28,199 nucleotides of DNA from NCBI GenBank assembly GCA_023261815.1, contig JALNKA010000011.1, positions 1 through 28,199 of the forward strand, written 5' to 3'. Numbering within the stretch: position 1 is the stretch's first letter; the number at the start of each line of letters is the position of its first letter. A program made the position numbers and the translations under genes. This DNA comes from Candidatus Wolframiiraptor sinensis (lineage in GTDB: Archaea; Thermoproteota; Nitrososphaeria_A; Caldarchaeales; Wolframiiraptoraceae). Under the pieces are notes generated by a model. The model saw only the letters and a list, made by a program, of their open reading frames with translations. It was not told the origin of the DNA and searched no databases. Below, one piece after another: positions 1,543 to 6,144 of the stretch.

Positions 1543-1722
1543 TTACCATTCGAGCTTAGGCGCACAGGCTCACGGCCGCAGCCCCATGCTCTAAAAGCCC
1601 CTATTTATCCATGCGAGCAGAGCGCTTTCCCACGAGATAACTCAGCTCACAGATTCGGCAGTAAAATAATTTCAATTTCTCAGATCCTTCGGTGCGATGA
1701 TGAAATTATTGTTGCGGTAATG

Positions 1723-1797
1723 TGGGGCCGCTGGGATTTGAACCCAGGACCTCGCGGGCCCAAGCCGCGAATCATAACCAAGCTAGACCACGGCCCC
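1723..1797 (-). tRNA. tRNA-Pro(TGG)
   Basis: Reverse complement GGGGCCG TG GTCT AGCTTGGTT ATGAT T CGCGG CTTGGGC CCGCG AGGTC CTGGG TTCAAAT CCCAG CGGCCCC A; acceptor, anticodon and T stems all pair; no encoded CCA. Confidence 0.95.
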
Positions 1798-1921: not shown

Positions 1922-2113
1922 TTAAGGCCCCCCTCACTTTAACACCCTAACATTAAACATGTTTATACCAAAACTTTTATGTCCGGGAACTTGAGGAGAA
2001 GTGCGGCGCATGGGGCTTTAAAGCCCGAGCAGTTAGCGACCCGACGTCTTCTGCAACGCTGAGAACAGGGTCCTAGGAAAAGAATTATTAGTTTACATGA
2101 TTATAGAACGATG

Positions 2114-2147: not shown

Positions 2148-3095
2148 ATGGAGTTGACTGAAAGGAAGATATACTATGTGGATGTAGCTAATGCAGGAAA
2201 GAAGAATAAGTTGCATGCGGTTTTTGATGGAAAGAGGACCTTTAAGGTTAGGAGGTTGATGGAGCTCGAGGATGCTGATGAAATCTACGTTGACATGTTA
2301 TTCCCGGAGAACTACGGTGAGGTCTTAAAGATGCTAGAGAAGGGCATTAAAATCTTTCTGCTGACGGAAACAAAACTCATCAAAAAGCTGAGAGTCCAAA
2401 ACAATGTAAGAAAAACTGATGAAAATGATTCAAAAGTCTTATCACTAATCTCAAAAGAATGCTTCCGAAATGTGAGTGTGGAGGAAATTAGGAGGAGAAT
2501 GGAAATGCAACCATTGATAGCGAAATACGAGGTCTTAACCCGAAGGATTAAAACTCTAAAACAATGGCTTAAAGATGGTCAAACCTCCGAAGAAATAAGA
2601 AAGGAGATCGTGAAAACGTCAAGAGAATTCGAGAAAGAAAGGAGTAAGATTGGCAGAGAGATAATCAGTGCACTCGGCGAGAATTATCGAAAAATTCTGG
2701 AAAAGATAGGGTTGAGGGGTAGCGTTGAGGCAGCCATACTACTAACATACTTGGATCTTAGTCGTGGAATAAATAAGCTGTTGACGTATTGTTGGAGGAG
2801 TAGAAAAGTGAACGAGCATTTATCAAAGTTAGTGTATAGCATTTATCGCCACTATCTAAGGGGAGACGTGGTCCCGGAGGCGTATAGGAAATTCATAGAA
2901 GAATCGAGAGGAAAATTGTCGAAGAGGCAGTTGCTCGTGAGACTCAAGAGAATGGTCATCAAAGATCTTAGAAGAGCATACATCGAACTTTCGGTGAAGT
3001 CGGCATCGCAAATAGGTGCCTATGGGACCGGAGGAAATGAGCCTCAGACAGCAAGAGCGACGGACGCGTCTATAGTTTCTTTGAAAAACCTATAG
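2148..3095 (+). CDS. IS110-family-like (DEDD RuvC + coiled coil + Nop/Tnp-like C-terminus) recombinase/nuclease
   Basis: YYVD(12) strand, IYVD(49), KTDEND (D91, D94; IS110 KTDxxDA motif), helical linker, IGLRGSVEAAILL and KLLTYC..N.HL..LVY resembling the IS110 C-terminal domain; the GLxP..QSG loop is absent. Confidence 0.7.
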   Translation: MELTERKIYYVDVANAGKKNKLHAVFDGKRTFKVRRLMELEDADEIYVDMLFPENYGEVLKMLEKGIKIFLLTETKLIKKLRVQNNVRKTDENDSKVLSLISKECFRNVSVEEIRRRMEMQPLIAKYEVLTRRIKTLKQWLKDGQTSEEIRKEIVKTSREFEKERSKIGREIISALGENYRKILEKIGLRGSVEAAILLTYLDLSRGINKLLTYCWRSRKVNEHLSKLVYSIYRHYLRGDVVPEAYRKFIEESRGKLSKRQLLVRLKRMVIKDLRRAYIELSVKSASQIGAYGTGGNEPQTARATDASIVSLKNL

Positions 3096-3147
3096 ACGCG
3101 CTACAAGGCCGACCTGTCTGGGGGCCGCCTCATACGGTCTCATAGGC
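3018..3147 (+). ncRNA. Putative guide (bridge/seek/tigRNA-like) hairpin RNA
   Basis: Stems 3018-3030/3135-3147, 3037-3041/3129-3133, 3042-3051/3114-3123 and 3065-3075/3090-3100; symmetric 13x13 internal loop whose strands match the tRNA target. Confidence 0.7.
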
Positions 3148-3174
3148 CCTCTCTTTTCTTCTTCCCTTTTCTCT
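3148..3174 (+). terminator. Pyrimidine/U-rich archaeal terminator-like tract
   Basis: CCTCTCTTTTCTTCTTCCCTTTTCTCT directly after the hairpin. Confidence 0.5.
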
Positions 3175-3228
3175 ACATTCCTTTAAAGAGCTAAGGTTAA
3201 TTAGCTTGAGAGTAAAATAGATTTTACA

Positions 3229-3331
3229 GCCCCGGTAGCTCAGCGGGTAGAGCGGCAGCCTTGTAAAGTTTATGTGATCTTTTGTTTTTCAAGAAAGCTG
3301 CAGGCCGCGGGTTCAAAGCCCGCCCGGGGCT
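3229..3331 (+). tRNA. tRNA-Thr(TGT) with a 30-nt intron at 37/38 (3266-3295)
   Basis: GCCCCGG/CCGGGGC acceptor stem, GCTC/GAGC D stem, GCAGC/GCTGC anticodon stem, GCGGG TTCAAAG CCCGC T arm; BHB motif with CTTG/CAAG central helix and TAA and AAA bulges. Confidence 0.93.
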
Positions 3332-3422
3332 TCAATATTCCTAGTCACGTGTTTTCTCTTTAAGGCTTTAATGACCGCAAGGCTGCTAAGATTTATCATC
3401 TCAATTGTAGGATGTTGTTAGT

Positions 3423-4272
3423 ATGGTCTCCTTAGGTAAGCGGTATGCGACTTTACTTGAGGTCTGCCTAGTCTCTCTACTTCTGACTTTTGTTGGATGG
3501 CTCCGAGATGCTTATTTAGCCTACTTGAAGTGTAGTATGTTCTGGCATTTTGGCTTCCCCAGCATTTATGATGCTCATAGCCCTACTTGCCATAATCTTA
3601 CCCAGGAGGAGCTTTAGGATTTACGGCTTTCTGCCCAGAAGCCCGCGCTTTACATTGAAGTGGAGCTCAGCATTTATAGCGGTCTTTATCCTGCCCGCGG
3701 TGTTCTCAATCGGGGTGTCGGCAGCTCTGGGCGTGGCTAAGCCTGCTGGGCTATCGCCGCTCAGCATAATTCTAAACGTAATCTTCAACATGATTTTCAT
3801 CGGGCTTGTTGAGGAGGCTTATTTTAGGGGTTATGTGCGGTCTAGGCTTAATGAGGCCTTTGAGAGGCGCTGGCGGAGGCTCATCTTTAAGGCTTGGAAG
3901 GTCGATTATAGAATGAGCTTACCTCTAACCTCCATAATCTTCGCCCTGATTCACATAGTCAACTACTGGAATCCGATTATATCAAGGTGGGAGCCGGCTT
4001 GGTGGATGCCCATACACATCCTAGGAGCCTTCGCCTTCGGGTGCCTGGCCGGCGCTCTAAGGGAGGCATCAGACATTTATGTCTCGGCTTCACTGCACGG
4101 AGGCATAATGACCGCCTACACGTTTCTATCCATTTATACAAGCGAATTGACCCTAAACATCAGCCTATTCATCAGCTGGCTCATCTTCTTCTACCTTCTG
4201 GCCATCTTCTTCCATGAATCCGAGAACCTAAGTGGCCTAGATTTGAGAGGGCGCAGTAAGAATAGTGAATGA
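3423..4272 (+). pseudogene. CPBP (Abi/CAAX) family intramembrane metalloprotease, apparently frameshifted near 3528-3550
   Basis: ORF 3550-4272 has GLVEEAYFRG, FALIH and SLHG motifs; ORF 3423 supplies an N-terminal TM segment in another frame. Confidence 0.65.
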
Positions 4273-4393
4273 ACTTAGGTCTTCGGAAACCCTAGATCAG
4301 AAGGTTGGAGGGAGCCTGAGGTCGGGGGTTCGAAGCCGCTCAGGGTTACAGATTACGGCTTTCCTCATGTAGATTGCGTTTCTTCCGGATTGC

Positions 4394-5569
4394 TCATTCT
4401 TGAGCTGAGTGCTTGTTCAATATTCCCAGCGTTATGAGTGACGCTGCTTGAGTGATGATTACGTAGCCTATGATTGTGGGCGCTGGTAGTTGTAGTAGGA
4501 GTGTTAGTATGAGGCCGCCAACCCCCCATGAGATTCCGTAAAGCATTCCGAAGACTCCGTAGGCGATCGCCAGCCCCTCTTTATCCACTATATCCGCTAT
4601 TGAGGCCCTCATTATGGTCTCTGAGGCGCCCATCGTGAGCCCCCAGAAGGCTGCCATCACGTATGCTAGTATCGCGCTCCTCGTGGTTAATAGTAGCGGG
4701 ATCATTAATGTTGCTATTGGAGCTATGTAGAGGCTCCTGAACTTTATCACGTCGTAAAGGTGGCCTATTGGGAGGGCTATTATGGCGTCCACGCCCATCG
4801 CGATCGCGTATAGCATCGCTATCTCGGCATCTCCCATGATACCCCATGATTTCAGGAAGTAGGATGCTATGGCCCAGTGCAGGAAGCCCAGAGACTGGAG
4901 CATCATCGCCGATGTGTAGAGCCAAAACCTTCTGCTCAGGCCTCTGAACGAGAGCTTTCTCGGCGAGATCTCGACGCTCTTAATTTTCGGATAAAGAGAC
5001 CATGCCGTGAATATGAAAATCATCGCCAGAGTGCCCGGGATCAGAAGCATTAGAAATGCCTTGGAGTAATCATAGTGTATGAGCATGAATGCGAAGAGTA
5101 GGGGGCCTGCCAAGGCGCCGACTTGATCCATAACCTCGTGGAGGCCGAAGCCCTTTCCCCTGCCAACCCCCTCCGTTACCTCGGCCAGGATCACGTCTCT
5201 CAAGGGCGTCCTTAAGCCCTTTCCAACCCTCTCCACGAGATATAGCGCTGTCGCGATCCACCAAAATCCCGCGAAGGCGAGGAAGGGCAGGACCATGACG
5301 TTCATGGCGTAGCCCAGTGCTACGAAGCCCCAGAAGGCGGCCGAGGACCCCAGGTAGGATGCCAGCATACCGCTCACGAATCTGAGAGCATATCCCAGAA
5401 ACTCGCCCGCGCCGATTATGGATGACGCGATTGGCGGAGCTCCGAGATGCTCCAAATAGGCTCCGCTGGCGGATCTAGCTCCCTCATAAACCATGTCAGC
5501 GGCCAGCGAGATGAGCCCGAGCAGAACAAAAACCACCAGAGCTCTCCTACCATATCTCCTGAGCTCCAT
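4394..5569 (-). CDS. MFS transporter
   Basis: Multi-TM; ADMVYEGARS, ERVGKGLRTPLRD and GKGFGLHEVMDQVGA motifs; start moved to ATG 5569, with TTAAATA about 30 nt upstream. Confidence 0.85.
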   Translation of the reverse strand: MELRRYGRRALVVFVLLGLISLAADMVYEGARSASGAYLEHLGAPPIASSIIGAGEFLGYALRFVSGMLASYLGSSAAFWGFVALGYAMNVMVLPFLAFAGFWWIATALYLVERVGKGLRTPLRDVILAEVTEGVGRGKGFGLHEVMDQVGALAGPLLFAFMLIHYDYSKAFLMLLIPGTLAMIFIFTAWSLYPKIKSVEISPRKLSFRGLSRRFWLYTSAMMLQSLGFLHWAIASYFLKSWGIMGDAEIAMLYAIAMGVDAIIALPIGHLYDVIKFRSLYIAPIATLMIPLLLTTRSAILAYVMAAFWGLTMGASETIMRASIADIVDKEGLAIAYGVFGMLYGISWGVGGLILTLLLQLPAPTIIGYVIITQAASLITLGILNKHSAQE

Positions 5570-5775
5570 CGCGTTAAACCTCGGAAATGGAGTGAAATAT
5601 TTAAGAGTATTATGTTTTTGCGGATGGATGCTCAGGCGCATGGAATGAGCGAGTATAGAGGCTTGACGAGCGAGGAGCCATCACCGCACTATGGCTCATC
5701 GGATTAGAGTAAGCTGTGCGAAAAGCTCGGGAACTGTATCGCCAAATCTTTCTATTGGCTTCAATGTTTCCTCAT

Positions 5776-6144
5776 TTATTCATGCTTATCATCCTCATGG
5801 ATTCTGAGCATTCTCAGGAGCTTCTTCCGCCCCTCCCGAGGATCCTTGAGGGCTTCAAGGAGCTCGTTTGGGTCTTCCGCATCGAGGATATTTTCCTCGA
5901 TCATCTTTTTGGCCATTATTCGGATCATCGCATCGGCCCCCTGCCCGAAGAGTCTTCTCATCGCTACGTGGAAGCTGTGGGGGTCCGCGCATAGGGCATC
6001 ATAGGGATTATTCTGCAGCAACTTCTCAAGATGATATTCCAGAACCCTCAGCCCTGTTCTGCCTAAGAGCGTTTCAAGCACTGGTCGGATGATCCTAGCG
6101 ACCTCCCCTCCTGAGGGGCTCGGAGAATACTCCCGATGCGACAT
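5776..6144 (-). CDS. Small helical archaeal protein (DUF3227/NitrOD-like)
   Basis: Pattern L..LLG..G..VL.YHL....P..F...MRRLFG.GA..M; ATG 6144 preceded by GAGGT. Confidence 0.55.
   Translation of the reverse strand: MSHREYSPSPSGGEVARIIRPVLETLLGRTGLRVLEYHLEKLLQNNPYDALCADPHSFHVAMRRLFGQGADAMIRIMAKKMIEENILDAEDPNELLEALKDPREGRKKLLRMLRIHEDDKHE

Follow-up and report, generated by a model that had tools for sequence, protein, structure and literature searches.

The window, the whole 28,199-nt stretch of Candidatus Wolframiiraptor sinensis DNA that was analysed, contains a tRNA-Thr gene split by a compact element. The features of the locus are as follows.

1894-1921, + strand: resident 5' part of tRNA-Thr(UGU), 28 nt long and now orphaned, with the same letters as the corresponding stretch of the intact syntenic tRNA of relatives L054 and L053
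1922-2147, + strand: left non-coding part of the element, absent from the intact locus of relatives
2148-3095, + strand: ORF P0001, 315 amino acids, with a RuvC-like DEDD domain, a coiled coil and a helical C-terminal domain
3014-3150, + strand: putative guide RNA gene, a long hairpin that covers the last 82 nt of the ORF, stop codon included
3052-3064, + strand: 5' loop strand, CAAGAGCGACGGA, sharing its sense with the target's left half
3065-3100, + strand: inner hairpin with an 11-bp stem, which closes the internal loop
3101-3113, + strand: 3' loop strand, CTACAAGGCCGAC, reverse-complementary to the target's right half
3151-3176, + strand: pyrimidine tract with T runs, directly 3' of the hairpin
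3177-3256, + strand: right arm, made up of a promoter-like stretch (TTTAAA at 3183-3188) and a replacement 5' part of tRNA-Thr (3229-3256)
3229-3333, + strand: restored, intron-bearing tRNA-Thr(UGU) (Rfam, 57.9 bits; ARAGORN, with intron)
3248-3265, + strand: current copy of the 18-bp site, matched by the loops at 15 of 18 positions

P0001 by itself has no family match among curated models. A profile built from 24 family members and searched against the sequences of solved structures in the PDB found its best relative in 9MTY, the TasR ribonucleoprotein of Faure et al. (E 1.5e-9, query positions 79-255), while IS621 was reached at E 0.035. The AF2 model of P0001 has a pLDDT of 90.9, and its best 10 Foldseek matches were all full-length matches to IS621 or ISCro4 (TM 0.55-0.57, with 0.56 for IS621); 9MTY was absent among the matches listed, and among these IS621 stands closer to the whole-protein fold than any Tas structure. 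Of the acidic positions, D94 is invariant in the 24 members, and D12, D49 and D91 are each kept in at least 90% of them. Opposite the 'YESGS' stretch of IS621 (family positions 216-222 in the HMMER alignment) there is no conserved serine: residue 218 is N in 10, S in 5 and R in 4 of 23 members, and the model of P0001 is helical here, without a beta-sheet. IS621 has its catalytic serine in this stretch, as part of the C-terminal Tnp domain, and IS110 transposition depends on that serine site (Vaysset et al.). PF01548 matched one of the 24 members (E 0.0098) and PF02371 none. The NCBIfam model transpos_IS110 (NF033542) gave weak matches in seven (best E 8.4e-6), with P0001 scoring 15.3 bits against a cut-off of 140, and TIGR_Tas_endo (NF052498) matched four, all under the cut-off (best E 8.3e-5). 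P0001 is a TasR/IS110-like protein, a remote relative of both that lacks the IS110 serine, and its family falls within the full definition of neither TIGR-Tas nor IS110.

The first-pass annotation, made from the letters of the window, had described a hairpin with a symmetric 13x13 internal loop at the end of this ORF, and both the fold and the positions and letters of the two loop strands proved correct. The stretch 3014-3150 (+ strand) folds with a minimum free energy of -71 kcal/mol, compared with a mean of -43.5 (sd 3.7) for shuffled sequences (z -7.42), and none of 200 shuffles folded equally well. The loop, bounded by a 10-bp outer and an 11-bp inner helix, is the only large internal loop in the hairpin. 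Its 5' strand would base-pair with the target's bottom strand and its 3' strand with the top strand. An Rfam search with the hairpin returned no family at E up to 1. The pyrimidine tract that had been noted 3' of the hairpin is present, recurs in 28 of the 29 copies listed, and is probably an archaeal terminator for the ORF and guide transcript. The left part of the element (1922-2147) is presumed to hold the promoter and 5' UTR; comparison of its fold with 200 shuffles detected neither a second RNA nor significant structure (z -0.48; 54 shuffles folded equally well). Contigs from RNA run X20 cover 2095-2307, 2588-2752 and 2828-3011; the hairpin lies outside them and they are uninformative on its expression. 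None of the differences shown for contigs from the sequencing runs falls within 3014-3150 (91 further differences were outside those shown).

The left junction (1921/1922) lies in the middle of the site that the loops specify, and the resident tRNA fragment stops exactly at this midpoint, where the break had been proposed. The right arm is a diverged duplicate of 1848-1921, and its replacement 5' part restores the tRNA. In the anticodon stem of the restored tRNA-Thr both sides of one pair are changed relative to four relatives, which accounts for the altered middle letter of the site core. The 15/18 identity of the two 9-mers to 3248-3265 and the overlap of the two guide footprints on CGG were both recovered. 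A copy in a tRNA-Leu gene (L002) has the same arrangement, with a replacement 5' tRNA part in its right arm, and shows it cleanly. Copies of the element interrupt tRNA genes and come with a substitute 5' half. P0001 is the sole ORF of at least 80 amino acids between the junctions, and no integrase match was found.

Upstream of the element, the gene at 226-1542 has 80% protein identity to its counterpart in both L054 and L053. Downstream synteny does not fix the right boundary: synteny with relative G023 resumes only at window position 5791, beyond two ordinary genes (an Rce1-like protease and an MFS transporter), and the sequence 3' of the tRNA is shared by no genus relative. Contigs carrying the element occur in each of three DNA metagenome runs (X2, X4 and X11), the left junction being crossed by contigs of X2 and X4 and the right by contigs of X2 and X11; no contig of these runs skips the element or shows an empty allele of the same strain.

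Uninterrupted sites were found in relatives. L054 and L053 share the upstream synteny and have an intact tRNA-Thr(UGU) in which the site reads CAGAGCGGCGGCCTTGTA. It matches the window loops at 16 of 18 positions, the right half at 9 of 9 or, when extended, at 10 contiguous positions. For the copy L029, the site GGGAAATAGGTTTAAGCCT is uninterrupted in L065 and the loop match is 19/19. The 17-mer specified by L002 (17/17) occurs exactly in the tRNA-Leu genes of five of nine relatives and with one letter off in three. Of the L029 and L002 sites, only that of L002 is a tRNA gene. In the three loci compared with empty alleles (the window, L029 and L002) the element stands at the centre of the site, so that the full match to the loops is lost on occupation.

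Of 35 related genomes, 13 carry more than one copy of the family, and many copies are degraded. Copies within one genome share a median of 50% and a maximum of 77% amino acid identity, with no near-identical pair, and to judge from these values they are old. Elements are compact, at about 1.2-2.9 kb, with a protein of about 300 amino acids and an RNA of about 130 nt. A homologous hairpin lies 3' of every full-length copy examined, one per gene copy, and covariance model R1 found only single hairpins, dispersed over the contigs of five genomes. In an alignment of 17 hairpins, compensatory changes affect 15 of the 26 consensus pairs, and the interiors cannot be aligned with one another. Loops are symmetric, with 9-12 nt per side, and their edges carry conserved letters specific to subfamilies; in the window loop a single C precedes each guide, and we could not place the loop-edge letters on box C (CCA) and box D (UG), the motifs on either side of each TIGR-Tas spacer. 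We found no earlier description of the family in the literature searched, though the Tas family lists of the TIGR-Tas work may already include it.

Loop strands were compared with the flanks of their own copies. Among 29 discovery copies the loop caller made no call in six and two calls were excluded as wrong; two of these eight were recovered by the first caller, leaving 23 copies. Exact matches of at least 10 nt occurred in the guide geometry in 14 of 76 comparisons and in the opposite geometry in 1 of 76; at a threshold of at least 9 nt the counts were 22 and 3. The same test of at least 10 nt on a hold-out set of 40 further hairpins gave 10/114 against 2/114, with loops called in 35, the calling having failed on five and looking imprecise for several others. 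With the hold-out flanks limited to at most 420 nt, a limit set post hoc after the positions had been seen, matches of at least 9 nt numbered 12/70 against 1/70. These counts are conservative, yet they carry some error from the loop caller. A broader test, of the longest exact match between the 165-nt hairpin region (both strands) and flanks of about 2.6 kb, found own flanks no different from those of other copies (background 9-10 nt), and this test is without power. Both loop arrangements occur, even at one shared site where the elements point the same way, which agrees with the interchangeable spacers that TasR is reported to have. The comparison of homologous loci that had been suggested as a check gave stems that are kept and covary, variable loops, and loop matches to own flanks. 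The first-pass proposal of a two-strand guide loop that spells the insertion site is supported by this pattern, by the kinship of the protein and by the three empty sites.

A small selfish DNA element in this hot-spring archaeon very probably has the hairpin as its guide RNA. We favour a reading, to which we give a probability of about 0.45, in which the element has a single guide RNA with which its TasR/IS110-like protein cuts the empty allele, and repair copies the element in. Each of the two loop strands would pair with one half of an uninterrupted 17-19 bp site, the two on opposite DNA strands, and their footprints would overlap on the central 2-3 bp. The only protein of the element, a RuvC(DEDD)-coiled-coil-Nop-like enzyme, would act in a dimeric ribonucleoprotein and cut the empty allele hydrolytically, as TasR does. 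The element would then be copied in from an occupied allele by homology-directed repair, which would amount to homing or to retention of the TnpB kind. When an essential tRNA gene holds the site, the right arm supplies a promoter and a replacement 5' half and so restores the tRNA. The kinship of the protein, the conserved hairpin with its variable loop, the strand-specific matches of loops to flanks, the empty sites and the tRNA replacement are observed, whereas we infer that the RNA is expressed and processed, that cleavage takes place and which route repair takes.

Homing is preferred to an IS-like spread because each guide specifies one site, copies within a genome are old, and seven junction pairs inspected by eye show no conserved, inverted or covarying ends. 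It is also supported by the range of alleles at one site across relatives (occupied, clean empty, footprint and ORF-less remnant) and by the many degraded copies. Against cutting in the manner of TasR stand the 2-3 nt overlap of the footprints, which is a trait of IS110, and the whole fold, which is nearer to IS621; the spacers of TasR are unlikely to overlap, according to Faure et al. Homing further presupposes an exchange of DNA between cells or genome copies, it leaves arrival at a new site with a new guide unexplained, and the restored tRNA of the window still matches the loops at 15 of 18 positions. Cleavage and homing are tentatively favoured over true recombination.

In the strongest alternative, which is possible but rather doubtful, the element encodes a true RNA-guided enzyme of the IS110 type, a recombinase or transposase, and is excised as a circle that strand exchange inserts at the 2-3 bp core. 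Recognition of the donor junction would then fall to the same loop, to the protein or to a part of the RNA not found here. The geometry of the loop and the overlap at the core agree with this, matching those of the IS621 target loop, as does the position of the RNA 3' of the gene, where the IS1111-group elements are described as carrying it. The full-length fold match to IS621 and ISCro4, the weak transpos_IS110 matches in 7 of 24 members and the multi-copy state of the family, with up to 23 protein matches per genome, point the same way. So do two traits of the junctions: the three overlap letters stand on both sides of the L029 element, and several copies have a right end that looks like the end of the left target half. 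When the right and left ends are joined, they resemble the target in the window and in L029; they do not in L005, which rules this likeness out as a general trait. A recombinase of this kind is opposed by the missing serine and the lack of a beta-sheet at the aligned position, by the single internal loop beside a 5' region without structure, and by the failure to see conserved or covarying ends in the seven junction pairs. It is opposed, too, by the absence of near-identical copies within a genome and by the guide arrangement, which is independent of the orientation of the element. The target-site duplication, moreover, has no fixed length: it is about 8 nt in L029, 7/8 in L020 and 1-3 nt in L005 and L018, an overall range of about 1-8 nt.

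It is unlikely that the ribonucleoprotein binds or cuts the site to exclude competitors, to enforce addiction or to repress the tRNA promoter, with insertion taking place by another route. Roles apart from mobility have precedents in catalytically dead stem-loop TasR and TasA, described as repressors in a 2026 preprint, and one and the same site being held by two different lineages also speaks for them. Faure et al. see a function in the inheritance of mobile elements instead of defence. Such roles sit poorly with the conserved acidic active-site positions and with the central position that the element has within the site at three loci, and regulation in cis is hard to envisage because the full match is the empty allele, which is gone from the carrier genome.

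That the hairpin is merely a terminator of the ORF or an mRNA-stabilising stem-loop, its likeness to the tRNA site being due to chance or to a captured piece of tRNA, is very improbable and already contradicted by the family-wide tests. In its favour are the overlap with the stop codon, the T-rich tract 3' of the hairpin and the first broad longest-match test, which gave no significant result. Against it, the stems are kept while the loop varies, strand-specific matches to own flanks recur in two independent sets, and two more empty sites match perfectly with only one of them a tRNA gene.

Several known systems stand close to the element. Two are functional analogues: homing endonuclease genes recognise the uninterrupted insertion site, which insertion destroys, and TnpB and IscB act in guide-directed retention of transposons. 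The target here is likewise an uninterrupted site destroyed by insertion, with occupied, empty, footprint and degraded alleles at one site; recognition, however, is by an internal two-strand RNA loop instead of a protein or a guide read from the flank, and a separate transposase is absent. Elements that use a tyrosine integrase to enter tRNA genes also split the gene, carry the displaced part and leave the tRNA whole. They differ in that an integrase is lacking here, where P0001 is the only ORF, in that the 5' half and promoter are replaced instead of the 3' end, and in that the site is specified by RNA.

The family shares with IS110 and IS621 a RuvC-like DEDD domain with a coiled coil and a helical domain at the C-terminus, a stem-loop RNA encoded within the element whose guide spells the insertion site, and loop strands that address the left and the right target on opposite DNA strands, with an overlap at the core. 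In the IS1111 group the RNA is placed at the right end. In contrast to IS110, members of the family lack the conserved serine and do not reach the curated IS110 models; they have one loop, whereas the IS110 bridge RNA has a target loop and a donor loop; the two sides of their loops are symmetric; the loop strands can swap roles; and neither conserved ends nor young identical copies are seen.

With TasR, which has a RuvC domain fused to a Nop-type RNA-binding domain and a dual-spacer tigRNA (Faure et al. 2025) with stem-loop variants, the family shares its closest sequence relationship among solved structures, an acidic site that is intact as in active TasR, and two guides of about 9-12 nt on opposite strands of adjoining segments, set in a stem-loop. 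The guide roles are symmetric and swappable in both. The strand geometry of TasR is here deduced from the reported 3' overhangs and from the statement that each spacer directs the cut in the strand with which it pairs. Unlike the tandem array of TIGR-Tas, hairpins here are single and dispersed, with one for each gene copy; the footprints of the two guides share 2-3 nt; the gene is part of a mobile element whose target is its own insertion site; and TIGR_Tas_endo is reached by only four of 24 members, below its cut-off in each. The natural targets and role of TIGR systems are reported as unknown in the TIGR-Tas literature.

Sequence, the missing serine and symmetric swappable guides are the TasR traits of the family, and the single element-borne stem-loop, the overlap at the core and the loop-spelled insertion site its IS110 traits. 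This mixture bears on the evolutionary link proposed between TIGR-Tas, IS110 and box C/D ribonucleoproteins. It is quite possible, if tentative, that the family is a third, archaeal branch of RuvC-Nop RNA-guided systems, with a serine-less nuclease, a stem-loop resembling both bridge RNA and tigRNA, and RNA-guided homing with repair of the tRNA. It would escape pipelines keyed on the Pfam architecture of IS110 or on arrays. The system is small, comes from hot springs and reads 17-19 bp without an evident flanking motif, properties that would be of use in a tool. As a close cousin of TIGR-Tas with one guide and a known target, it offers a function that is directly testable. The swapping of the 5' half of a tRNA together with its promoter is an unusual way to inhabit an essential gene. 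If the reading is true, the family would represent a living intermediate that links TIGR-Tas with IS110, and P0001 would be the first TasR-like enzyme with a known natural target.

The element in the window and the tRNA-Thr sequences beside it are laid out as follows.

1894-1921, orphan 5' part of a tRNA-Thr gene, 28 nt, which breaks off after 1921
2148-3095 (+), ORF encoding P0001, 315 aa, whose final 82 nt and stop codon lie within the hairpin
3014-3150, single long hairpin, followed 3' by a pyrimidine tract with T runs
3229-3333, intron-bearing tRNA-Thr(UGU), starting 53 nt past the pyrimidine tract (Rfam 57.9 bits; ARAGORN)

The hairpin has a minimum free energy of -71 kcal/mol (shuffled sequences -43.5 +/- 3.7, z -7.42, 0/200 as stable) and contains a symmetric 13x13 internal loop, formed by 3052-3064 and 3101-3113, between a 10-bp helix and an 11-bp inner hairpin. 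The first-pass annotation had proposed that the two loop strands spell the insertion site on opposite strands, and its coordinates, its letters and its count of 15/18 identities between the loop and the present-day site (3248-3265) were all correct on rechecking. The proposal is supported by the intact tRNA-Thr genes of two related genomes, G022 and G023 (L054 and L053), which read CAGAGCGGCGGCCTTGTA and have the adjacent tRNA-Pro and an upstream gene (80% aa identity) in common with the window. The left half of the relatives' site matches the 5' loop 9-mer in the same sense at 7/9 letters, and the right half matches the 3' loop 9-mer as its reverse complement at 9/9, or 10 contiguous letters on extension. 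The overlap of the two guide footprints on CGG, also noted in the first pass, is seen on this intact site. The 1894-1921 fragment is identical to the 5' part of the relatives' tRNA and ends mid-site. Together with the intact genes, this indicates that ~1.3 kb of DNA was inserted into a resident tRNA gene, dividing it at the midpoint of the loop-spelled sequence.

Past the break at 1921, window positions 1922-1929 read TTAA and then GGCC, the continuation of the relatives' tRNA, so the left copy may extend as far as position 13 of the site, interrupted by 4 inserted nt. Compared with four relatives (L053, L054, L083, L084), the restored window tRNA is changed in both members of one anticodon-stem pair, and the middle letter of the site core is altered as a result. 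Between the tRNA and 5791, where synteny with G023 resumes, window 3334-5775 holds an Rce1-like CAAX protease (3550-4272) and an MFS transporter (4394-5641, minus strand), which may or may not have arrived together with the element. Compared with window 1722-1797, the tRNA-Pro of G023 (L053, G023:C16) has ~30 extra nt in its T-arm region that may be a non-canonical intron.

Other copies of the element have comparable sites. The loops of L029 (G023) predict GGGAAATAGGTTTAAGCCT, composed of 12 and 10 loop letters overlapping by 3, and this sequence is contiguous in G034 (L065, G034:C24; flanks 97% identical), with a 19/19 match. At the same site, G022 (L066, G022:C7) has a 9-nt footprint that shares 8/9 letters with the right end of the element, and the window's own genome, G000 (L067, G000:C33:49268-52636), has an ORF-less remnant of ~600 nt with hairpin and pyrimidine tract, in which 9 letters of the left half are still present in the 5' loop strand. 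A single site therefore exists among relatives in four states: occupied, clean empty, footprint and remnant. The paralogue L002 (G000) splits tRNA-Leu(CAA). Its loop-predicted 17-mer is exact in the genes of 5/9 relatives and one letter off in three; the ninth is another tRNA-Leu. The anatomy of L002 is clear-cut: its left fragment is identical to the 5' half of the relatives' gene, whereas the resident sequence is retained in the 3' half and the downstream flank. From the right arm come a promoter region and another 5' half, in which the D-stem is compensated, and this replacement is no longer a match to the left guide. The window element has the same layout.

A first broad loop-to-flank test had no power. 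Loop strands were then called by algorithm and exact matches to each copy's own flanks counted in two mirror geometries with identical search space, the guide geometry being that in which a loop strand either reads in the same sense as the left flank or is reverse-complementary to the right flank. In the discovery set of 23 copies, matches of at least 10 nt numbered 14/76 in the guide geometry and 1/76 in the opposite one (22 vs 3 at >=9 nt; 5 vs 0 at >=11 nt). The hold-out comprised 40 further covariance-model hairpins, with loops called in 35, and gave 10/114 vs 2/114 (19 vs 7 at >=9 nt). Guide-geometry matches lay mostly 70-330 nt beyond the hairpin, and a post hoc cut-off of 420 nt gave hold-out counts of 12/70 vs 1/70 at >=9 nt. 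Both site halves, one per side, were found in 6/15 discovery copies with at least 200 nt of upstream flank in the locus.

Matches to the P0001 profile occur in 13/35 genomes from the same family-rank group, reaching 23 in a single genome; a large number sit at the ends of contigs, and a large number contain stops. A homologous long hairpin stands 3' of every full-length copy examined, followed by a pyrimidine tract in all of them but L045. Stem covariation across homologous loci, suggested earlier as a check, was found: 17 hairpins retain the outer helices, 15/26 consensus pairs showing compensatory changes, and their interior gave no alignment. The covariance model finds the hairpin at ~27 places in G023, 9 in G007, 17 in G014 and 13 in G011, always as single, dispersed copies with no tandem arrays. 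Copies within one genome share a median of 50% aa identity (maximum 77%) and are old. G000 has 12 protein-profile matches (e.g. L003 on G000:C13, L034 on C12, and others on C14, C2, C10, C18 and C5), mostly broken or partial apart from the window's ORF and L002. L003, L009 and L035 have a conserved small ORF upstream of the main ORF (motif FEFCRFY...WLGSPLMERL), and L007 and L037, a minus-strand copy, have a common upstream GC-rich block of ~200 nt; the window element has neither. In L025 (G034:C54) the hairpin interior is inverted relative to close L009-type relatives, with the outer stem orientation unchanged, and an 11-nt flank match agrees with the un-inverted RNA. The cause may be inversion between the arms of the hairpin, or else an artefact of assembly.

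The window stretch is present in hot-spring metagenome contigs from several studies. Three DNA runs from three studies (X2, X4, X11) have contigs on the element, the left junction being crossed in X2 and X4 and the right in X2 and X11, and none has a contig skipping it. One RNA run (X20) has contigs over parts of the ORF only. In one of these, 3011 is linked back to 2172 through a single additional letter, which may reflect a circle, a tandem copy or faulty assembly.

P0001 reached no Pfam family, and a word-based search returned two near-identical proteins only. A full HMMER scan of 1.84 billion cluster representatives returned 170 with E <= 0.001, which makes this a small family. In a 24-member alignment acidic positions are conserved: D94 is invariant, and D12, D49 and D91 each occur in >=90% of the sequences. 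Against PDB sequences, the family profile matched 9MTY (E 1.5e-9), which is the TasR RNP from the TIGR-Tas paper, and IS621 (E 0.035). The best 10 structure matches of the AlphaFold model (pLDDT 90.9) were IS621 and ISCro4 over the whole length (TM 0.55-0.57), with TasH far weaker. Opposite IS621 'YESGS' the family alignment has no conserved serine and the P0001 model is predicted to be helical; the text of Vaysset et al. describes the serine site as essential for IS110 transposition. Curated models matched far below their cut-offs: PF01548 in 1/24 members (E 0.0098), PF02371 in 0/24, NF033542 in 7/24 and NF052498 (TIGR-Tas endonuclease) in 4/24. Near both TasR and IS621, yet reaching no curated model and lacking a conserved serine, the family lies beside both known families and inside neither. 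Our literature search, which included text of the TIGR-Tas, IS110-Nop5, bridge RNA and 2026 non-coding atlas papers, found no description of a TasR- or IS110-like element with a single guide spelling its own insertion site.

There is good support for the two loop strands recognising an uninterrupted site of 17-19 bp. For the events that follow, a true recombinase is the less favoured explanation. In its favour, the guide footprints share a 2-3 bp core, as they do in IS110, and the text of Faure et al. considers spacer overlap unlikely for TasR; the predicted whole-protein fold resembles IS621; and core letters are present on both sides of L029. Junction duplications of ~1 to 8 nt are too variable in length to decide between recombination and cutting. 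Hydrolytic cutting with homing or retention is favoured because there is no conserved serine, because the RNA has one loop only and no structured 5' RNA was found for the element, because no conserved element ends were seen, because each guide has one site and the copies are old, and because occupied, empty, footprint and remnant alleles occur at one site. A further reason is that the two loop strands can exchange roles, even between copies that share both site and orientation, which matches the swappable spacers of TasR (Faure et al.). According to that text TasR leaves 3' overhangs and each spacer directs the cut in the strand with which it pairs, from which we infer the same geometry as here. 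After recognition by the two loop strands, the RNP would cut hydrolytically and the element would home or be retained.
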